Source: Candidatus Avispirillum sp. (GTDB lineage: Bacteria; Bacillota; Clostridia; Oscillospirales; CAG-272). Taken from it: DNA of 64,000 nt. Both the position numbers and the translations under genes were made by a program. The notes under the pieces were generated by a model. The model made no database searches. It was not told the DNA's origin and saw only the letters and a program-made list of their open reading frames with translations. The DNA lies in the NCBI GenBank assembly GCA_045636685.1, contig JAZTXZ010000109.1, forward strand, positions 10,381-74,380, given 5' to 3'. Shown piece by piece: positions 4,452 through 33,570 of the stretch. Every line of letters begins with the position of its first letter. Within the stretch, counting starts at the first letter, position 1.

Positions 4452-5765
4452 ATGGGACTTATTAAAGCAGGAATCGGAGCTATAGGCGGAACCCTTGCAG
4501 ACCAGTGGAAAGAGTTTTTTTATTGTGACGCTCTTCCCGCAGACGTGCTTGTAAGAAAAGGACAAAAAAGAACAAGCTCCCGTTCATCAAATACAAAGGC
4601 AGAAAATAACATCATCACAAGCGGCTCCGGAATTGCCGTTGCCGACGGACAGTGCATGATGATAGTTGAGCAAGGCAAAATAGTTGAGGTTTGTGCCGAG
4701 CCCGGCGAATATACCTTCGATGCTTCAACTGAGCCCTCCGTTTTTTCGGGAAACCTTGGCGAAAATATTCTCGCAACATTTAAGACCATAGGAAAGCGTT
4801 TCACATACGGCGGAGATACCGCAAAAGATCAGAGGGTCTATTATTTCAACACCAAAGAGATAATCGGAAACAAGTTCGGAACTCCCAGCCCTATTATCTT
4901 TGAAGTTATGAATAAACGTATCGGAATGAGCCGCACCGTAAGTGTTCGCTGCAACGGTATGTATTCTTACACCATCACAGATCCCCTTATTTTCTATACA
5001 AAGGTCTGCGGAAATGTAGAATATGAATACACCCGCGACATGATTGACGATCAGCTGAAAACTGAGTTTATATCAGCTCTTCAGCCCGCTTTCGGAGCCC
5101 TTGCAGAGCTTGAGCTTCGTCCGGCTCAGATCCCTGCAAAGGTAAACGAGCTTAAAGCAGCTATGAACGAAGCCCTTAAGGCAGAATGGGTAGAAAGCCG
5201 CGGAATCACTGTTGAAAAGATCGCCATCAATCCCATCACCCTCACCGATGAGGATATGAAGAAGATAAATGAGATGGAAGACTCCGCTTCATACGGTTCA
5301 AATCCATTTATGATGGCCGGAAGAATGACTACCGCAACCGCAAATGCCATGGAAACTGCCGCAGGAAATACCGCAGGCGCCATGAACGGATTTATCGGCA
5401 TGGGCATGGCAGGAGGCGCAATGGGCGGTGGCTTCAATGCAGCCCAGCAATTCTACGGAATGGGCGCTCAGCAGGTTGCCAAGGCTGAAACTGAACAAAA
5501 CGGCTGGAAATGCTCATGCGGTGCTACCGCAACAGGCAAGTTCTGCACCGAATGTGGCGCAAAAAAGCCCTCCGCTGAGGGGTGGACCTGCTCTTGCGGA
5601 ACTGTTAACCGCGGAAAGTTCTGCTCAGAGTGTGGTGCAAAGAAGCCTGCAGGAGCTCCCCTCTATCGCTGCGATAAGTGCGGCTGGGAGCCTGATGATC
5701 CACACAATCCTCCAAAGTTCTGTATGGAATGCGGAGACAGATTTGACGACGGCGATCTCATATAA
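4452..5765 (+). CDS. SPFH-domain protein of the YdjI / virion-core-protein-like family with three C-terminal zinc-ribbon repeats
   Basis: 437 aa. N-terminus MGLIKAGIGAIGGTLADQWKEFF is typical of YdjI/COG4260. The C-terminus carries CSCG..FCTECGAKKP, CSCG..FCSECGAKKP and CDKCG..FCMECG. Confidence 0.75.
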   Translation: MGLIKAGIGAIGGTLADQWKEFFYCDALPADVLVRKGQKRTSSRSSNTKAENNIITSGSGIAVADGQCMMIVEQGKIVEVCAEPGEYTFDASTEPSVFSGNLGENILATFKTIGKRFTYGGDTAKDQRVYYFNTKEIIGNKFGTPSPIIFEVMNKRIGMSRTVSVRCNGMYSYTITDPLIFYTKVCGNVEYEYTRDMIDDQLKTEFISALQPAFGALAELELRPAQIPAKVNELKAAMNEALKAEWVESRGITVEKIAINPITLTDEDMKKINEMEDSASYGSNPFMMAGRMTTATANAMETAAGNTAGAMNGFIGMGMAGGAMGGGFNAAQQFYGMGAQQVAKAETEQNGWKCSCGATATGKFCTECGAKKPSAEGWTCSCGTVNRGKFCSECGAKKPAGAPLYRCDKCGWEPDDPHNPPKFCMECGDRFDDGDLI

Positions 5766-5782: not shown

Positions 5783-6868
5783 ATGACACAGATACTTCAA
5801 TATAAGTGTCCTTGCTGTGACGGTGCTATTGAGTTTGACAGCACCGCACAAAAGATGAAATGCCCCTACTGCGATACGGAATTTGAGCCCGAGACACTTC
5901 GCTCCTATGATGAGGAATTGAAAAGCCGCAAACCTGACGACATGAGCTGGAACACTCATGCAGGTAAGGAATGGACAGAAGGAGAAGAAGAGGGCCTTCG
6001 CTTCTACCGTTGTAACTCCTGCGGCGGTGAAATCATCGGAGATGAAACACTGGGAGCTACGAGTTGCCCTTTTTGCTCAAATCCCGTCATAATTATGGGG
6101 CAGTTTGCAGGGAATCTGAAGCCCGATCTGGTTATTCCCTTCAAGCTTGACAAAAAGGCCGCTATTGACTCTTTAAAAAAGCATTATATGAATAAGAAGC
6201 TTCTCCCCAAGGCCTTTAAGGATAAGAACCACCTTGACGAGATCAAGGGAGTTTATATTCCCTTCTGGCTTTTTGATGCTGATGCAGATGCACATCTCAA
6301 CTACCGTGCAACTAAAGTGAGGGTATGGAGTGACAGCAAATACAGTTACACCAAAACCAGCTTCTATAGTATCACACGCGGCGGAGGACTGAATTTCAGG
6401 GCTGTTCCAGTTGACGGTTCTTCAAAAATCGATGACACGCTTATGGAATCCATTGAGCCTTTTGATCTCTCCGAGGCAGTTGATTTTCAGACGGCTTATC
6501 TTTCAGGCTTTTTGGCCGACAAATATGATGTTTCGAGCGATGAAAGCATAGGACGTGCAAATGAAAGAATCAAAAGAACCACTGAGGATGCTTTTTCAGA
6601 AACTATTTCGGGATATACCTCTGTGACTCCTACCCACAGCAGTATAAATCTGAAAAACTCAACGGCACGCTATGCTCTTTATCCCGTTTGGCTTCTCAAT
6701 ACCTCTTACGATGGCAAGAATTACACCTTTGCAATGAACGGACAAACAGGAAAGTTCGCCGGAGATCTTCCTCTTGATAAAAAAGCCTTTAAAAAATGGC
6801 TTTTCGGTATTTGGGGTATTGCTGCGGCAGCTATCTTCTTAGCCTTGATGCTCTTTAACTTACTGTAA
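5783..6868 (+). CDS. Zinc-ribbon membrane-anchored protein (YdjG-like)
   Basis: 361 aa. Two N-terminal CxxC...CxxC ribbons (CPCC..CPYC, CNSC..CPFC) and a single C-terminal TM helix. It sits between the SPFH and TPM genes, as in the B. subtilis ydjGHI operon. Confidence 0.55.
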   Translation: MTQILQYKCPCCDGAIEFDSTAQKMKCPYCDTEFEPETLRSYDEELKSRKPDDMSWNTHAGKEWTEGEEEGLRFYRCNSCGGEIIGDETLGATSCPFCSNPVIIMGQFAGNLKPDLVIPFKLDKKAAIDSLKKHYMNKKLLPKAFKDKNHLDEIKGVYIPFWLFDADADAHLNYRATKVRVWSDSKYSYTKTSFYSITRGGGLNFRAVPVDGSSKIDDTLMESIEPFDLSEAVDFQTAYLSGFLADKYDVSSDESIGRANERIKRTTEDAFSETISGYTSVTPTHSSINLKNSTARYALYPVWLLNTSYDGKNYTFAMNGQTGKFAGDLPLDKKAFKKWLFGIWGIAAAAIFLALMLFNLL

Positions 6869-20827: not shown

Positions 20828-22546
20828 ATGAAAAAATCTTTAAAATACTTAAAAAAATACAAGAAAGAGGTAGTTCTCGGCCCTCTTTTTAAGCTCATTG
20901 AGGCTACCTTTGAGCTTTTTATCCCTCTCGTTGTTGCTGCTATCATTGACATTGGTATCGGCGGAGGTGACAAGGGGATTGTTATCAATAACGGACTTCT
21001 TATGATAGGCCTTGGAATACTTGGTCTCATTTTCTCCGTTATTGCCCAGTTTTTCTGCGCAAAAGCTGCCGTCGGATTTGCAACGGATATAAGACAGGCG
21101 CTTTTTCAAAAGCTTCAAAAGCTTTCCTACTCTCAGATCGACTCCCAGGGCGAAAGCGCACTGCTGACCCGTCTCACAAGCGATACCAACGCCATGCAAA
21201 ACGGCGTAAATCTGGTATTACGCCTTGTTCTTCGCTCTCCCTTTATCGTTTTCGGCGCTGCTATCATGGCCTTTACCGTTGACCCCGAAAGTGCCGTTTG
21301 GTTCGTTATTGTTATTCCCGTCCTTGCGGCAGTAGTACTTGCGGTTACAGTCATAACCGTTCCTCTTTATAAGAAGGTTCAGAAAAAGCTTGAGGGAGTT
21401 CTCTCGCTCTCTGAGGAAAATATCCGCGGAGCAAGAGTTATACGAGCATTTTGTGCCGAGGAAACCGAAAAGGAAAAGTTCATCTCCGAAAACCGCGCAC
21501 TCTATTCTCTCCAGAAACTGGCGGGCAGATTTTCCGCTCTTATGAACCCCGTTACATACGTCATAATCAATGCGGCAACAGTTGCCCTTCTTTGGACGGG
21601 AGCTGTGAGAGTTGACAGTGGAGTCATAAAGGTGGGCGCAGTTGTTGCACTTTTCAACTATATGTCTCAGATTCTTATTGAGCTTATAAAGTTTGCAAAT
21701 GTTATCGTAAACATGCTGAAGGCCGTCGCCTGTGCAGACCGAGTCGAGGCTGTTCTCTATGCAGAGGATGAAGCACTTCCTGAAGGCTCGGACAAAACTT
21801 TCGACGGACTTGTCACCTTTGAGAACGTTACTCTAAGATACACCAAAGATGCTGATCCCGCCCTTGAGAATATATCCTTCTCCTGCAATGCCGGAGAGAC
21901 TGTCGGTATCATCGGCGGCACCGGAAGCGGAAAGACATCACTCGTGAATCTTATCTGCGGTTTCTATACGCCAGAAAAAGGCACAGTTGCCCTTTTCGGA
22001 CATGACGTTCTGAGACAAAGCCGCGAAGAGCTTCTCTCAAAGATTGCCATAGTGCCTCAAAAAGCTGTTCTTTTTAAGGGAACGGTTCGTGAAAACCTTC
22101 TCTGGGGAAAGCGCGATGCCACAGATGAAGAAATGTACAGCGCTCTCAGAGCCGCTCAAGCCGAGGATTTCATCCTTGAAAAAGGAGGACTTGACTGTCC
22201 CGTTGAAGAAGGAGGAAAAAACTTCTCCGGCGGCCAGCGCCAACGTCTTTGTGTTGCCCGCGCACTGGTCAGACAGGCCCATGTTCTTATCCTTGACGAC
22301 TCTTCCTCTGCGCTTGATTTTGCAACAGACAGTGCCATGAGAAAAGCTATCAAGTCCCTCTCTTATTCCCCCTGCACCTTTATCGTCTCCCAACGCACAT
22401 CCTCCATTATGCATGCCGATAAAATAATCGTTCTTGATGACGGACAGGCCGTAGGCATAGGTCAGCATGAGGACCTTCTCGAAAGCTGTCCCGTTTACCG
22501 CGAGATCTACGATTCTCAGTTTACAAAAGGAGGGGATGCTCGATGA
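20828..22546 (+). CDS. ABC exporter, fused permease/ATPase subunit 1
   Basis: 6-TM N-domain. Walker A GGTGSGKTS, signature FSGGQRQRL, Walker B ILILDD. Confidence 0.9.
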   Translation: MKKSLKYLKKYKKEVVLGPLFKLIEATFELFIPLVVAAIIDIGIGGGDKGIVINNGLLMIGLGILGLIFSVIAQFFCAKAAVGFATDIRQALFQKLQKLSYSQIDSQGESALLTRLTSDTNAMQNGVNLVLRLVLRSPFIVFGAAIMAFTVDPESAVWFVIVIPVLAAVVLAVTVITVPLYKKVQKKLEGVLSLSEENIRGARVIRAFCAEETEKEKFISENRALYSLQKLAGRFSALMNPVTYVIINAATVALLWTGAVRVDSGVIKVGAVVALFNYMSQILIELIKFANVIVNMLKAVACADRVEAVLYAEDEALPEGSDKTFDGLVTFENVTLRYTKDADPALENISFSCNAGETVGIIGGTGSGKTSLVNLICGFYTPEKGTVALFGHDVLRQSREELLSKIAIVPQKAVLFKGTVRENLLWGKRDATDEEMYSALRAAQAEDFILEKGGLDCPVEEGGKNFSGGQRQRLCVARALVRQAHVLILDDSSSALDFATDSAMRKAIKSLSYSPCTFIVSQRTSSIMHADKIIVLDDGQAVGIGQHEDLLESCPVYREIYDSQFTKGGDAR

Positions 22547-28072: not shown

Positions 28073-29068
28073 TTATCTCTCCTCGCGGAAATAAGTGAGG
28101 CCCAGACTTTCAGGAGGCTGATGCTCTCTCTTTTTTCTCATACTTGTGAATACGAGGACTATTATTGTTACCACGTAGGGGAGCATCTTGAAAAGCTCCT
28201 GAGTTTCAGCGCCAAGACCGTGGATATAGTTATTGGCGTTACAAAGGGCACCGAATACAAATGAGCCAACGATTGCCATTGAAGGCTTCCAGAGGGCGAA
28301 AATTACAAGAGCAATCGCCATCCAGCCGCGGTCTCCGAAGGCATTATTTGACCAAACGCCGTTTGCATATGCCATTACATACTGAAGTCCGCCGAGACCT
28401 GCAACCGCGCTTCCTATCATAGTTGCAATATACTTATAAGCAGTTACGTTTATACCTGCCGCATCTGCCGTTGCGGGATTCTCACCCACGGAGCGGAGAT
28501 TAAGTCCCACGCGAGTACGGTTAAGTACCAAGGACGCGCCAACTGCTATGATAATTGCAAGATAGGTAAGAAAATCATGTGAAAGGAAAATATCTCCAAA
28601 CCAACCGAGATCGTCTGCAAAGGGGAGCTTTGCGCAGAAGAACTGGCTTGTTTTTGAAAGAGCGATGGAAGGCATATCGCTGTCTGTAAGCTTGATAAGC
28701 GATCCACCGAAGAAGTTACCGAGACCGATACCGAAGGTTGTGATAGCAAGACCCGTAACGTTCTGATTTGCTCTGAGAGTTACTGTGAGGAAGCTATAGA
28801 TAAGACCCATAAGAACGCTTCCGAGAATAGCGCAAAGAAAAGGGATCATAATGCTGAGAAATGCGTTCATATTAGCAACATCATTTGAGCAGGCCTGCTC
28901 ATAAAGAAATGCGCCGATAACGCCGCCGATAGCACCGGTATACATAATACCGGGAATACCCAGATTAAGATGTCCGGACTTCTCAGTAATTATCTCACCG
29001 GTTGAGCCGTAAAGAAGGGGAACACCCAGCATTATTGCTCTGCATATAAACTGTACTACAATGCTCAT
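28073..29068 (-). CDS. ABC importer permease (BMP/nucleoside-type, second permease)
   Basis: 331 aa polytopic membrane protein, 4-nt overlap with the upstream permease, operon context. Confidence 0.85.
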   Translation of the reverse strand: MSIVVQFICRAIMLGVPLLYGSTGEIITEKSGHLNLGIPGIMYTGAIGGVIGAFLYEQACSNDVANMNAFLSIMIPFLCAILGSVLMGLIYSFLTVTLRANQNVTGLAITTFGIGLGNFFGGSLIKLTDSDMPSIALSKTSQFFCAKLPFADDLGWFGDIFLSHDFLTYLAIIIAVGASLVLNRTRVGLNLRSVGENPATADAAGINVTAYKYIATMIGSAVAGLGGLQYVMAYANGVWSNNAFGDRGWMAIALVIFALWKPSMAIVGSFVFGALCNANNYIHGLGAETQELFKMLPYVVTIIVLVFTSMRKKREHQPPESLGLTYFREER

Positions 29069-30180
29069 GCTCTTTCCTCCTTTTTCTTATGACGAAGCTT
29101 AAAGCTATAGCGGATGAAGAACTCGCATCCTACAACGCAAAGGATAACCACACCTACCGCAATATCCGCAAAGGACGCATTGAGATAGCAGGTATCCGCA
29201 ACCTTTGCAGTACCCAGTCTCAGGAAAATGACGATAGCCGTCATAATTACCATAATAAAGGGATTGAACTGACCGAGCCATGAGATCATAATCGCAGTGA
29301 AGCCCTGGCCGCCAACGGTCTTTGTATTAATAGTATGGTCTGTACCGGCAACAAGAAGCATACCTGCAATACCGCAGACAGCACCTGATATAAGCATGGT
29401 TCTGATTATTATCTTCTTAACGTTTACGCCGATATAACGGGCTGTATTCTGGCTCTCACCTACAACGCTGATCTCATATCCGTGCTTTGAGTACTTAAGA
29501 TAAACGTACATAAGAACTGTGAGAACAGCTACTATCACGATATTTACAAGATAGCGGTTTCCGTCTACAACGGGGAAATTACCGTGCTCTACAGGCTGGA
29601 TAATATTTGATCCGCCGCCCTTGATATATACATAATATGCGATGATCTGAGTGGCGATATAGTTCATCATCAGGGTGAACAAGGTCTCGTTTGTATTAAA
29701 GAATGCCTTGAAAACAGCGGGAACAAAGCCCCAGAATGCACCTGCAAGAATACTTGCAACGGCGATGATGACAAGAAGAAGTCCGTCAGGAACCTTGCCG
29801 CCAAGCTCGATCATACAGATCATTGCCGCAAAGCCGCCCATAAGGGCCTGACCCTCTGCGCCGCAGTTCCAGAACTTCATCTTAAATGCGGGGGTAAGAG
29901 CAAGTGCAAGGCAAAGAAGGATAGCTATCTCCTGGAGATATTTCCAGAGCATTACAGTGGATCCTGTTTCGATTCTGCCGAACACTCCTCGATACATTAT
30001 TTCAAAAGTTTCGAAGAGGCTCTTCTCTGTCAGGAGCATTGAGAGAAAGCCAACGAAAAGCACTGACAAAAGAATAGTTACGACTCTGATTATCCAAGCC
30101 TTCCACCATACCATATCATCGCGCTTTGCGATATGGACGAGAGGCTCGCGATGAGCTTTTTGGTGCACACTTTTAGTCAT
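29065..30180 (-). CDS. ABC importer permease (BMP/nucleoside-type, first permease)
   Basis: 371 aa polytopic membrane protein; operon context. Confidence 0.85.
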   Translation of the reverse strand: MTKSVHQKAHREPLVHIAKRDDMVWWKAWIIRVVTILLSVLFVGFLSMLLTEKSLFETFEIMYRGVFGRIETGSTVMLWKYLQEIAILLCLALALTPAFKMKFWNCGAEGQALMGGFAAMICMIELGGKVPDGLLLVIIAVASILAGAFWGFVPAVFKAFFNTNETLFTLMMNYIATQIIAYYVYIKGGGSNIIQPVEHGNFPVVDGNRYLVNIVIVAVLTVLMYVYLKYSKHGYEISVVGESQNTARYIGVNVKKIIIRTMLISGAVCGIAGMLLVAGTDHTINTKTVGGQGFTAIMISWLGQFNPFIMVIMTAIVIFLRLGTAKVADTCYLNASFADIAVGVVILCVVGCEFFIRYSFKLRHKKKEERA

Positions 30181-30184
30181 CTCT

Positions 30185-32239
30185 TTACTCCTTTCCTTCT
30201 TTTTTAGACTTTGTCATAAGAAGACCGATCTCTTCCTTAGTTGCAGTTCTACCGTCAACCATGCCTGTGATACGTCCCGAGCCGATTACCATGATTCGGT
30301 CACAAAGCTCAAGAAGAACATCAAGGTCCTCTCCGACGAAAATTATGCAAACGCCCTTCTCTTTCTGCTCATTGAGAAGGTTATAGATAAGATAAGAGGA
30401 GTTGATATCAAGTCCTCTTACGGGATAAGCTACCATAAGGACCTTAGGGGAGGATGCGATCTCTCGGCCTACAAGGACCTTCTGAACATTACCGCCGGAA
30501 AGACGGCGGACGGGAGTTGTTGCGCCGGGGGTTACAACCTCAAGATCACTGATTATCTTCTGAGCAAGATCCTTGGGATCCTTTCTCTTGAGGAACACGC
30601 CACGGCCCTTGGAATAGCTGCGGAGCATCATATTATCTACGATATCCATATTACCTACAAGACCCATACCCAGTCTGTCCTCGGGAACAAAGGAAAGACG
30701 GACACCAAGCTCTCTGATCTGCATGGGAGTAAGATCGCGGAGATTCTCCACAGGCTTCTGCTCCTTGATTATGCTTCTATCGGGCTTAAGCTTCAGTTCT
30801 CTTACGATCTCGAAATCCTCGCGGTTATTCTTTACGTAAATGAAGTTCGAAAGATAGATAAAGAAGGAAACGGGATTAAAGAAAAGATAAAGGATAAGCA
30901 TTCCCACGCTGCTTTCGTGCTGAACTGCGCGGTTACAGCTGCTATAGTTAAGTCTGTCTATACATTCCTTGATCTTTATCTCATTGGACTTATTCACAGA
31001 AGACCAGACAAAGGAAAGAACACTTCCGAGAAGAAGGAAAAGAGGAACTACAACATCTGCATTTCCAAACTCTCCGCTGACAGCCTTGAGAGCTATGAGA
31101 ATAGCTGCACCGAGGATGCCAAAGACACCGACAATATTGAAGAACCACTTTCCGATCTTATTGACCAGATACTCAAGCTTGAATTTCTTGCAGAACTTAT
31201 TATAAAGGCTCTGGAGCTCTTTTGTTTTTTCCTCACCGTAGTTATTTTCAACCTTAGGCTGTACCGGATTATGATAATAGATCTCGCCCTCATTTATATG
31301 CTGGAGGCCCGCAATAGCCTCGAGAAGCTCTCTCTGTCCGCTTCCCGCAATACCTGCGATACCGAGGATCTCTCCTCCCTTTGCAGTAAATGAAACGTTA
31401 TCAAGGACAACAGAGCCCTGACGGTCGGTGCAAGTCAGATTTTTGACCTCAAGTCTGTCTGTTGCATCCTTTACGTCTGTTCTGTTGATATTGAGCTCGA
31501 TCTTTTTGCCAACCATCATTTCTGTAAGCTCAGATTCACTTGTCTCTGAGGTGTTTACAGTACCCACGTATTCACCCTTACGGAGAACAGCAACTCTATC
31601 GGAAAGAGAAAGCACCTCATGGAGCTTATGGGTGATGATGATGATACACTTACCGTCGTCACGCATACGGCGAAGAATATCAAAAAGCTTAGTGGTTTCC
31701 TGAGGAGTAAGCACGGCGGTGGGCTCGTCCAGAATAAGGATATCCGCGCCGCGGTAAAGCACCTTGATTATCTCAACGGTCTGCTTTTCGGAAACGGACA
31801 TTGTATATACCTTTTTCTCGGTATCAAGTTCAAAACCGTACTGAGCGCTGATCTGTGTTATCTCCTCTGTGGATTTTTTCAGATTATACTTGCCGTCCTC
31901 AATACCGAGAACTATATTCTCTGCCGCAGAGAACACATCAACAAGCTTGAAATGCTGATGGATCATACCGATTCTGTAATTAAAGGCATCCTTTGGGGAT
32001 GCAATAACTACCTGTTCTCCGTTTACGCTGATGGAACCCTCATCGGGGAAATAGATACCTGAGATCATATTCATGAGGGTGGTCTTTCCGCTTCCGTTTT
32101 CACCCAGAATAGAAAGTATCTCCCCATGGTATGCAGTAAGGCTGACGTTCTTGTTTGCTACCACCTTACCAAATCTTTTGGTTATATTTTTTAGTTCAAT
32201 AGCAGGCTGTTTTGTCACAGTTGGCCTCCTTTTTATCAT
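30185..32239 (-). CDS. ABC importer ATPase with duplicated NBDs and a ~170-aa hydrophobic insertion in NBD2
   Basis: NBD1 has GENGSGKTT, SVSEKQTVEI and ILILDEPT. NBD2 has GIAGSGQRE, LSGGNVQKV and VLMVAYPVRGLD. The protein is 684 aa, longer than I would expect for this family of double-NBD importer ATPases (from memory, not checked). Confidence 0.9.
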   Translation of the reverse strand: MIKRRPTVTKQPAIELKNITKRFGKVVANKNVSLTAYHGEILSILGENGSGKTTLMNMISGIYFPDEGSISVNGEQVVIASPKDAFNYRIGMIHQHFKLVDVFSAAENIVLGIEDGKYNLKKSTEEITQISAQYGFELDTEKKVYTMSVSEKQTVEIIKVLYRGADILILDEPTAVLTPQETTKLFDILRRMRDDGKCIIIITHKLHEVLSLSDRVAVLRKGEYVGTVNTSETSESELTEMMVGKKIELNINRTDVKDATDRLEVKNLTCTDRQGSVVLDNVSFTAKGGEILGIAGIAGSGQRELLEAIAGLQHINEGEIYYHNPVQPKVENNYGEEKTKELQSLYNKFCKKFKLEYLVNKIGKWFFNIVGVFGILGAAILIALKAVSGEFGNADVVVPLFLLLGSVLSFVWSSVNKSNEIKIKECIDRLNYSSCNRAVQHESSVGMLILYLFFNPVSFFIYLSNFIYVKNNREDFEIVRELKLKPDRSIIKEQKPVENLRDLTPMQIRELGVRLSFVPEDRLGMGLVGNMDIVDNMMLRSYSKGRGVFLKRKDPKDLAQKIISDLEVVTPGATTPVRRLSGGNVQKVLVGREIASSPKVLMVAYPVRGLDINSSYLIYNLLNEQKEKGVCIIFVGEDLDVLLELCDRIMVIGSGRITGMVDGRTATKEEIGLLMTKSKKEGKE

Positions 32240-32334
32240 AGCTTTTAAGAATATGTCCGAACTTCGGGCACATTCTTAAAAACCATGATAAGGCGAGGAA
32301 AGATTTCCCCGCCTTATACAGTTTTTCGTTAGTA

Positions 32335-33570
32335 TTAGCCGTAGTTTCTGTCAAGAAGAGTGATACCGTCGATCTCGATATCGAAGTAAGGAGCAGAACG
32401 GTGCTTGGACTCATAGAAAATGCCGTCCTCAATAACCTCTGTATCCTTCTCGAAGTTTGCGTCGGTATCAACGTCTGCCATGTAAGAAGTGATAGTCTCA
32501 CCGCCTACTGTGAAGTTCTTTGTATCAAATACGTGGATAGTACCGTCAAGAAGACCCTTCTTAACTTCAGCGATCTTATCTGCAGTGCCTTCAGCAGCAG
32601 CCTTATCGTTGATGTCTGTGAGAAGAACGGACTCAGTGTTGATAGTACCTGTCCAGTCAGCCTCAATAGCCTTACCCTCTTCAACGCACTTGATCATATG
32701 CTCGAAGTAGGGAGCCCAGTTGATTCTGGAGGAAACGATAAATGTGTTGGGGCAAGCAGCTACTGTGGAGCCGTTGTAGGAAACGTTGGGAACGCCTGCG
32801 TTCTCACAAGCTGTGGGAGCGCCCATAGAGTCTGCATGCTGGCTGATAAGAACACAACCGCCGTTGATAAGAGCCTGAGCTGCTTCCTTCTCGAGCTGCT
32901 CGTCGTACCATGAACCTGTGAACTTAACGTCCATAGTTACAGAGGGACAAACGGACTTAGCACCGAGATAGAAGGATGTGTAGCCGGAAATAACCTCAGC
33001 GAATGTGAATGCGCCAACGTAGCCCATCTTAGCTTCTTCAGCCTTGATTGTGCCTGCGTCGATCATCTCGTTGAGCTTGAGGCCTGCAGCAACACCTGCA
33101 AGGAATCTACCCTCGTAGATAGATGCGAATGCATTGTGGAAGTTGTCAAGACCTGCTGTGTGTGCCTGTGTACCTGTTGCGTGGCAGAACTGAACGTCCT
33201 TGTACTCCTCTGCAGCCTGCATAAGGAAGGACTCGTGGCCAAAGCTGTCTGCGAAAATAACGTTACAGCCATCAACCTCGATAAGCTCTACTGCTGCGTC
33301 ATAGCACTTTGTGGACTCGGGGATCTGAGTCTTCTGTGCATACTCAACGCCCATAGCCTCGCATGCAGCCTTTGCAGCGTCCATGAAGTTCTTGTCGTAT
33401 GTGGAGTTTTCGTCGTGAAGGAAGATGAAGCCTACCTTAACTTCAACCTTGTCATCACCCTTGTTGTCGTCGCCCTTGTTGTCGCCGCCCTTGTTACCGC
33501 ATGCCGCAAATGCGAACATGGAAACAACCATGAGAGCTGCGAGAAGAAGCGCCATAATTCTTCTGCTCAT
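32335..33570 (-). CDS. BMP-family (PnrA/TmpC-like) lipoprotein, nucleoside/purine-binding component of the ABC importer
   Basis: Lipobox MALLLAALMVVSMFAFAACG, a GDNKGDDNKGDDK linker, and BMP-family core motifs (GFIFLHD.., GYVGAF). Confidence 0.9.
   Translation of the reverse strand: MSRRIMALLLAALMVVSMFAFAACGNKGGDNKGDDNKGDDKVEVKVGFIFLHDENSTYDKNFMDAAKAACEAMGVEYAQKTQIPESTKCYDAAVELIEVDGCNVIFADSFGHESFLMQAAEEYKDVQFCHATGTQAHTAGLDNFHNAFASIYEGRFLAGVAAGLKLNEMIDAGTIKAEEAKMGYVGAFTFAEVISGYTSFYLGAKSVCPSVTMDVKFTGSWYDEQLEKEAAQALINGGCVLISQHADSMGAPTACENAGVPNVSYNGSTVAACPNTFIVSSRINWAPYFEHMIKCVEEGKAIEADWTGTINTESVLLTDINDKAAAEGTADKIAEVKKGLLDGTIHVFDTKNFTVGGETITSYMADVDTDANFEKDTEVIEDGIFYESKHRSAPYFDIEIDGITLLDRNYG

Follow-up and report, generated by a model that had tools for sequence, protein, structure and literature searches.

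In a 64,000-nucleotide stretch of DNA from Candidatus Avispirillum sp. (contig JAZTXZ010000109.1 of GenBank assembly GCA_045636685.1; hereafter the window), the gene for the tandem ATP-binding cassette (ABC) ATPase of a Bmp-type importer contains an in-frame insert of 167 amino acids within its second nucleotide-binding domain (NBD2). The insert is a real and unusual domain insertion with a narrow distribution. As the best explanation, which we consider probable as a whole, a complete membrane-protein module was captured in frame, in a single event in the ancestor of a small clade including the Candidatus Avispirillum metagenome-assembled genome (MAG), has been kept by selection, and forms a hairpin that would anchor the ATPase in the membrane. 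In ABC importers that depend on a binding protein, the ATPase subunits are soluble and dock on separate permeases, and here too the permeases are encoded by separate genes. The original prediction, made from the letters of the DNA, had pointed to a membrane-type insertion as unusual in this setting, and alignment, hydrophobicity and the Pfam annotation of the operon all agree with it.

Alignment with homologues, proposed earlier as a check, defines the insert exactly: it lies between Pro325 and Glu493 (residues are in window numbering throughout; nucleotide positions are given in Table 1). The range first proposed, 30746-31267 (residues 325-498), captured a real insertion and overshot its right bound by a few codons. 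The site in the short relatives reads ...YHNP-KTGSVD-NLRDKTP..., with the six residues KTGSVD in place of the insert, so the segment is no widespread soluble linker. Searched with the whole protein, the database yielded six carriers of 675-683 residues, which are 81-100% identical over their full length, followed by 114 relatives of 509-529 residues that lack the insert and are 85-90% identical in the flanks. Using an alignment of the six inserts, we also scanned one genome per GTDB species, where the insert was present in one representative only, a Candidatus Avispirillum MAG, and the JGI metagenomes, where one more insert-bearing contig was found, bringing the carriers to seven. The carriers stem from separate projects and assemblers (NCBI MAGs, ENA MEGAHIT and scaffold assemblies, and the JGI contig) and diverge by 34-47% from each other within the insert; all are in frame and free of stops, and the reading frame runs through the insert in the window as originally stated. 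Misassembly, which had been named as a possible refutation, is excluded because seven independent, diverged assemblies hold the insert at one place and in frame. Two loci, L004 with and L007 without the insert, have the same operon and the same neighbours on both sides, and in a tree of the flanks only, built on a reduced set of sequences, the six insert-bearers form one clade nested among insert-less sequences.

Every recovered copy with the insert-specific motifs sits in the same ATPase gene (one GTDB-representative locus and one JGI locus). No other host protein carrying the module was found, a negative that is weakly established because the searches are blind to embedded segments: the word-index search missed even the identical protein P0001, and the profile search missed the six carriers. 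The exhaustive phmmer search covered 50% cluster representatives, among which insert-bearers are hidden behind insert-less representatives.

Both halves of the host protein match ABC_tran (PF00005; three stretches in all), as in a two-domain tandem ATPase. The claim that all NBD motifs are intact does not hold. NBD1 has canonical Walker A (GENGSGKTT) and Walker B (ILILDEPT) motifs with the signature VSEKQ, and NBD2 has a Walker A motif without the lysine (GSGQRE), a Walker B motif without Asp-Glu (VLMVAYPV) and the signature LSGGN. The canonical set (GxxGxGK[ST], hhhhDE and LSGGQ) is thus incomplete in each domain, and the protein is an asymmetric member of its family, with one consensus ATP site and one dead site, since Walker A and B of NBD1 pair with the LSGGN signature of NBD2. 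The insert did not cause this degeneracy, because all insert-less relatives share the degenerate motifs. Rather, the insertion was probably tolerated because NBD2 is catalytically degenerate across the family. The insert lies in the hairpin after the dead Walker A helix, in the antiparallel-beta subdomain of NBD2, which is plausibly a permissive position.

The insert is related to a family of free-standing membrane proteins. A phmmer search with the insert alone against 1.84 billion cluster representatives returned small free-standing proteins, the best of which has 178 residues and aligns to insert residues 8-160 (E 4.9e-11). A profile search yielded 87 family members of 134-256 residues from Ruminococcus and Clostridia assemblies, and hhalign of the six inserts against 46 stand-alone proteins gave a probability of 99.5% (E 6.3e-23) over 152 columns. 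Common to both are an amphipathic helix with an invariant Glu, two hydrophobic spans (transmembrane segments TM1 and TM2 below), an L-Y-x-x-C loop, an FFN...INF hydrophobic segment and a K-x-N-x-x-x-F-E tail. We interpret the insert as a captured gene module because it is homologous over nearly its whole length to free-standing Clostridia proteins; the stand-alone family is broad and the fused form is a small clade within an insert-less radiation, and therefore the capture was made by the ATPase gene. The earlier suggestion of a domesticated insertion thus holds, in the form of a captured copy of a stand-alone family under purifying selection.

Many stand-alone members have an N-terminal Zn_Ribbon_1 domain and are annotated as ‘zinc ribbon domain-containing protein’ or ‘hypothetical protein’. 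No CxxC pairs occur in the insert, nor does Pfam match a Zn_Ribbon domain there; judged by its sequence, the module was taken without the zinc ribbon and is a derivative, not a regular member, of the stand-alone family. The membrane module itself has no model in PHROGs, NCBIfam or Pfam, where only sub-threshold hints were obtained (8xMP, MYPE2350 and CCC-motif membrane proteins). The stand-alone relatives have long, variable, acidic insertions only in the TM1-TM2 loop. Two elements of the insert, CIDRLNYSSCNRA and the KLKPDRSIIK tail, lack conservation among the stand-alone proteins and were accordingly fixed after fusion.

Selection on the insert was assessed from the coding sequences of the six carriers, as proportions of nonsynonymous (pN) and synonymous (pS) differences. 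Synonymous sites are saturated (pS 0.5-0.87), and the ratio of nonsynonymous to synonymous rates (dN/dS) is ~0.16 for the whole insert. By partition, pN rises from 0.019 in CIDRLNYSSCNRA (pS 0.64) and 0.043 in VQPxVENNYGEEKT (pS 0.78) to 0.135 in the C-terminal tail (pS 0.78) and 0.41 in the TM1-TM2 region (pS 0.74), where the sequence varies and hydrophobicity is kept. The near-invariant motifs are VENNYGEEKT, CIDRLNYSSCNRA and DFEIxRELKLKPDRSIIK, and two Cys are found among the invariant cytoplasmic motifs. Inside the invariant peptides the codon family changes with the lineage, AGC or TCT for Ser and CTN or TTA for Leu; this synonymous variation rules out conservation at the level of the nucleic acid. 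By these measures of sequence change, the insert is translated and under purifying selection. At synonymous sites the six carriers differ more within the insert (proportion 0.76) than in the NBD flanks (0.50-0.60), for which stronger codon constraint in the flanks, or their homogenisation by recombination with insert-less relatives, are possible causes.

A single host position follows the insert. Leu503, four residues past the C-terminal junction, is the only position of the ATPase that is fixed in the six carriers and absent from the 114 insert-less relatives, and this K503L substitution suggests from the alignment that the base of the module packs on NBD2. Two motifs that became invariant only after fusion, together with the linked substitution, argue for co-adaptation of module and host.

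These data bear on the alternative that survives best, namely that the module is a tolerated passenger in a permissive loop of a dead domain, of no benefit to the transporter, and kept foldable and non-toxic since its precise deletion is improbable. The degeneracy of NBD2 is in line with such an origin, as is a site that is a surface hairpin loop of six residues in the relatives. So are the very narrow distribution (one GTDB species representative and one JGI contig), unchanged permease lengths and a protein sequence that evolves 4-5 times faster in the insert than in the flanks (pN 0.26 versus 0.05). However, despite saturated synonymous divergence, three motifs of the fused form are more conserved than the NBDs (pN 0.02-0.04), and CIDRLNYSSCNRA and the tail became fixed only after fusion; co-adaptation is further suggested by K503L, and none of the seven lineages has lost the insert or its frame. 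We therefore regard a mere passenger as unlikely, if not negligibly so.

The genomic neighbourhoods of the stand-alone proteins are partly conserved. Members in loci L011-L013, L014-L015, L016 and L017-L018 lie directly downstream of an HTH_3 plus DUF3169 gene pair, sometimes as two tandem copies, and members also occur near genes for an ABC ATPase of 232-234 residues and a 526-residue membrane protein without a Pfam family. The triple of HTH, DUF3169 and family member is retained in two different wider contexts, and the context of the stand-alone protein P0122 (locus L008) is unrelated. The HTH_3 and DUF3169 pair resembles AyrR/AyrA, which belong to the secretion-stress operon ayrRABC of S. 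aureus (PMC4542188).

One may speculate that the module is a portable accessory subunit for ABC-type machines, which works as a free-standing protein with AyrR/AyrA-like and small ABC systems and is here hard-wired into a dead NBD; its spans could then serve as extra translocator helices or couple import to membrane or secretion stress. We assign a low probability to this idea. If true, it would be a case from nature in which a soluble ABC ATPase has become a regulated subunit integral to the membrane through insertion of one gene within another. A related alternative is a regulatory or sensor module that senses the state of the membrane or envelope, or binds a partner, and gates ATP turnover via NBD2, which would make it comparable to the regulatory insertions and domains known from other ABC proteins. 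The two Cys in the invariant cytoplasmic motifs would suit such a role, as would the position of the insert next to a degenerate, potentially allosteric nucleotide site and the frequent location of stand-alone relatives beside the AyrR/AyrA-like pair and a small ABC system (PMC4542188). We nevertheless find a sensor quite improbable: it has no direct support, no curated family matches the stand-alone proteins, and the conserved neighbourhoods, with P0122 as an unrelated case, perhaps reflect shared ancestry in part.

The three hydrophobic segments described in the original prediction are present (Table 1) and are the sole peaks in the protein at which the 19-residue Kyte-Doolittle (KD) mean reaches at least 1.6, with maxima of 2.47, 2.08 and 1.94, against 1.38 elsewhere. 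The reading as transmembrane helices fits the first two segments and does not fit the third. Lys and Arg residues number nine before TM1 (residues 326-364), none in the TM1-TM2 loop, five between TM2 and segment 3, and eight after it, a pattern that fits the positive-inside rule with the N-terminal side inside, TM1 running outward and TM2 inward. Since the chain leaves and re-enters a single cytoplasmic domain, it can cross the membrane only an even number of times, and by this parity segment 3 is probably not a normal span; Lys and Arg on both of its sides, a break in its predicted helix and its weaker hydrophobicity agree. Rough Hessa-type sums over the six sequences range from -2.9 to +3.2 kcal/mol for TM1 and TM2, mostly near or below zero, and from -1.2 to +7.2 kcal/mol for segment 3, which is the weakest.

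A structural model, which had also been proposed as a check, was computed for the full protein with AlphaFold2 (AF2) from an alignment of 79 sequences. The insert is confidently helical, with a predicted local distance difference test score (pLDDT) of 84-97; modelled alone, it gave the same elements (pLDDT 90.9, predicted template modelling score 0.79). In silico, the insert confidently folds as a long antiparallel helical hairpin followed by four short helices, and the helix of segment 3 is broken at the conserved Asn455 of FFN (between model residues 438-447 and 449-464). The likely architecture is therefore a two-span hairpin plus a non-spanning hydrophobic element. Judging from helix lengths in the model, an amphipathic stretch of ~29 residues at the start of helix 1 (roughly 40 Å) and one of ~17 residues at the end of helix 2 would form a cytoplasmic stalk of roughly 25-40 Å. 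Foldseek found no significant match in the PDB (best E 0.46); the best local similarities were to the membrane glycosyltransferases GtrB and ArnC, over 69-82 aligned columns with root-mean-square deviations of 1.4-5.2 Å, and are not significant (E > 1).

AF2 shows only helices and takes no account of the membrane, and some of the weak fold matches in the PDB are soluble coiled coils. By the helix lengths, moreover, segment 3 may pack along the stalk. The insert might on these grounds be a soluble or oligomerising helical bundle beside NBD2, a reading that we consider very improbable. TM1 and TM2, with 20-23 residues and KD means of 2.1-2.5, are hydrophobic all around and change in sequence without losing this character, as is typical of lipid-facing helices; in addition, the distribution of Lys and Arg obeys the positive-inside rule, and the best local structural matches, albeit not significant, are to membrane proteins.

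The insert is more AT-rich than its flanks, as noted from the start (GC content 40.7% versus 46.1%). Because GC content at third codon positions (GC3) matches that of the host (49.7% versus 48.5%), the AT-richness reflects amino-acid content, as the codon footprint of Phe, Ile, Lys and Asn, and gives no sign of foreign DNA. Several types of element were considered and rejected. An intein does not fit a segment that starts with Val326 and ends with Lys492 followed by Glu493, without a Cys or Ser start and without the His-Asn plus Cys/Ser/Thr end, and Pfam finds no Hint or intein domain in the protein at E up to 1. For a group I/II intron or structured RNA, a comparison with Rfam at E up to 1 gave no intron family and only chance-level matches far below gathering scores. 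A miniature inverted-repeat transposable element (MITE) or insertion sequence is not indicated either, as the junctions have no terminal inverted repeats or target duplications and no copies with the insert-specific motifs were recovered outside this ATPase gene; a possible CCN-GTN (Pro-Val) microhomology shared by the two junctions is neither long enough nor conserved. An artefact or removable element (assembly chimera, pseudogene, intein, group I/II intron or in-frame MITE), which could be suspected from the AT-richness and from an insert-only word-index search that returned nothing, has a negligible probability in the face of diverged, stop-free copies at an identical place and frame in seven independent assemblies, the wanting intein termini and domain, the missing intron families and repeats, the synonymous variation inside invariant peptides and the GC3 of the host.

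We thus favour the capture of a membrane-anchoring module, and propose the following sequence. A small membrane-protein module, without its zinc ribbon, would have entered the beta-hairpin loop of NBD2 in frame. Its two long helices would begin as a cytoplasmic stalk and end as a two-span membrane hairpin, TM1 passing from inside to outside and TM2 back, which would turn the normally soluble ATPase into an integral membrane subunit. Segment 3 would not cross the bilayer and may instead dip into it, lie at its interface or pack on the hairpin, after which the conserved C-terminal helix would return the chain to NBD2. An insertion beside the dead site would spare the single consensus ATP site, and the invariant cytoplasmic motifs together with K503L may constitute a new interface between the module and NBD2. 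From sequence and model, the likeliest and simplest role would be membrane anchoring of the ATPase next to the two permeases, with stabilisation of the complex; the insert might also modulate the transport cycle.

Several points weigh against this proposal. The conservation of the motifs might reflect a constraint on folding instead of a new function, and segment 3 is strongly hydrophobic on every side. A single origin has weak bootstrap support (48/100), and every carrier comes from a metagenome assembly. Insertion into the membrane, the orientation of the hairpin as it emerges from NBD2 and its contact with the permeases are each deduced indirectly. Finally, the permeases show no change in length in insert-bearing genomes, so there is no independent sign that they accommodate extra helices.

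The operon lies on the minus strand and comprises the genes for a Bmp/PnrA-like substrate-binding lipoprotein, the ATPase and two permeases (Table 1), with a phosphoribosyltransferase gene adjoining it. This gene order is repeated in loci L001, L003, L004 and L007, and the permeases have the same lengths as at the insert-less locus L007. Bmp proteins are described as substrate-binding proteins of nucleoside ABC transporters (PMC7093131). By its operon, the importer is of the Bmp/PnrA (nucleoside) type; a nucleoside substrate is putative and suggested by context, namely the adjacent phosphoribosyltransferase gene. NCBIfam profiles of tandem ATPases of ~500-510 residues (putative B6, XylG, RbsA and others) match the ATPase in two blocks that flank the insert, the first stopping at about residue 323. 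None of the NCBIfam equivalog cut-offs is reached, the best match being the putative B6 ABC transporter ATP-binding protein (407 bits versus a cut-off of 670), and a sequence search of the PDB returned no close tandem ATPase with a solved structure.

The 684-residue ATPase of the original prediction corresponds to an existing, continuous open reading frame (30185-32239, minus strand) that opens with an ATG at 32239. This ATG is not conserved, and a GTG at 32218 is common to all relatives and is preceded, 6 nt upstream, by the Shine-Dalgarno sequence AAAGGAGG, which the codons MIKRR of the longer frame overlie. From these features the GTG is probably the true start, which would give a protein of 677 residues.

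The region between the Bmp and ATPase genes (32216-32336, minus strand) is strongly predicted to form two adjacent RNA hairpins (minimum free energy -49.3 kcal/mol, z = -7.9), which are conserved across the six related loci used for comparison, whether or not these carry the insert. Stem positions vary on both arms between loci, for example AAGAATGTG...CATATTCTT versus AAGAGTGTG...CACACTCTT, changes that are compensatory in appearance. The hairpins are probably intercistronic elements that set the ratio of binding protein to ATPase, and they account for chance ‘miRNA’ matches in Rfam at 32231-32293. Genes for a P22-type portal and a large terminase are found a few kb upstream of the operon in L004, L005 and L007 (positions 1-2300), in insert-bearing and insert-less genomes alike, which suggests a conserved prophage or phage remnant. 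Elsewhere in the window, tblastn found no stand-alone paralogue of the insert: a match of P0122 at 21116-21400 lies in the transmembrane domain of an ABC exporter and is spurious. Two genes gave weak zinc-ribbon matches and are unrelated to the insert; one (4452-5765, plus strand) encodes a 437-residue protein with C-terminal tandem CxxC...CxxC zinc-ribbon repeats, and the other (5783-6868, plus strand) a 361-residue protein with N-terminal zinc ribbons and a C-terminal transmembrane helix.

Table 1. Features of the insert, its host gene and the operon (nucleotide positions in the window; model numbering plus 7 gives window numbering of residues)
Feature	Nucleotides	Strand	Residues	Remarks
Insert, captured small-membrane-protein module in NBD2 beta-hairpin	30764..31264	-	326-492	167 aa; alignment with insert-less relatives
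N-terminal conserved motif VQPKVENNYGEEKT, exit from NBD2 strand	31223..31264	-	326-339	V, Q and VENNYGEEKT invariant in six sequences
Amphipathic cytoplasmic stalk helix, continuous with TM1	31148..31222	-	340-364	Single 53-residue helix in AF2
Hydrophobic segment 1, predicted TM1, in to out	31079..31147	-	365-387	KD maximum 2.47; variable but hydrophobic
Hydrophobic segment 2, predicted TM2, out to in	30995..31054	-	396-415	KD maximum 2.08; preceding loop (388-395) without Lys/Arg
Invariant cytoplasmic motif CIDRLNYSSCNRA, between TM2 and segment 3	30926..30964	-	426-438	Identical in six sequences
Hydrophobic segment 3, probably non-spanning (re-entrant or interfacial), kinked at N455	30833..30907	-	445-469	AF2 break; Lys/Arg flanks
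Conserved C-terminal helix and linker DFEIVRELKLKPDRSIIK, back to NBD2	30764..30817	-	475-492	Invariant except I/V; Ser489 AGC or TCT
Leu503, host substitution linked to insert	30731..30733	-	503	Lys in 114/114 insert-less, Leu in 6/6 carriers
Degenerate NBD2 Walker A GIAGSGQRE, no Lys	31328..31354	-	296-304	Invariant in relatives with and without insert
Degenerate NBD2 Walker B VLMVAYPVRGLD, no Asp, no catalytic Glu	30407..30442	-	600-611	Invariant with and without insert
AF2 strand			317-323 (model 310-316)	
AF2 helix			336-388 (model 329-381)	53 residues
AF2 helix			393-432 (model 386-425)	40 residues
AF2 four short helices			model 429-436, 438-447, 449-464, 466-477 (window +7)	8, 10, 16 and 12 residues
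AF2 strand re-entering NBD2			497-499 (model 490-492)	
Host gene, tandem-NBD ABC ATPase of Bmp-type importer	30185..32218	-		677 aa from probable GTG start; Pfam ABC_tran, E 3.6e-43
Bmp/PnrA-like substrate-binding lipoprotein gene	32335..33570	-		Pfam PF02608, E 3.9e-26; same operon
Two permease genes, 29065-30180 (371 aa) and 28073-29068 (331 aa)	28073..30180	-		Pfam BPD_transp_2 (PF02653), E 1e-30 and 8e-32

The closest known systems are the Bmp/PnrA-type tandem ATPases (CUT2-like, of the NupO/RbsA type), which have the same two ABC_tran domains, operon and degenerate NBD2, with flanks 85-90% identical to members of 509-515 residues; the difference lies in the 167-residue membrane module inside NBD2. 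The stand-alone zinc-ribbon membrane proteins of Clostridia share the module over ~150 homologous residues, but they are independent genes, many with Zn_Ribbon_1, whereas the insert has no ribbon, has motifs of its own and is joined to the ATPase at both ends.

Internal insertions in NBDs are known from CFTR (the regulatory insertion in NBD1), from the coiled coil of SMC and Rad50, and from the insertion domains of UvrA. In CFTR, Rad50 and SMC a sizeable insertion likewise separates Walker A from the rest of the ABC fold; in Rad50 and SMC it is an antiparallel helical hairpin that projects from the head, as predicted here, and in CFTR it lies in the beta subdomain of the NBD of the degenerate site, as does our insert. 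Those of CFTR, SMC and Rad50 are, however, soluble and either disordered or coiled-coil; they occupy other positions, have no sequence relationship to the module, and are ancient and shared by whole families, while the present insert is recent and has a membrane-type tip. Fusions of a transmembrane domain to the terminus of an NBD are common. In exporters and MacB-type proteins such fusions also tie the ATPase covalently to membrane helices, but end to end with the translocating domain, whereas here a foreign two-span module is nested in the NBD and the permeases are separate. A search of the literature for precedents found no transmembrane insertion or membrane module inside the NBD of an importer.

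The case documents a rare evolutionary mechanism, the in-frame capture of a nearly entire gene inside another, and its weight is limited by a narrow distribution in one uncultured lineage of gut Clostridia. It makes a topological prediction for the Clostridial zinc-ribbon membrane proteins, whose N and C termini should lie on the same, cytoplasmic, side. Relatives with and without the insert, which share the operon and are ~90% identical, form a before-and-after pair that can be used to ask how tethering of an NBD affects assembly and coupling. More generally, the degenerate NBD of asymmetric ABC ATPases may be a permissive platform for domain insertion.

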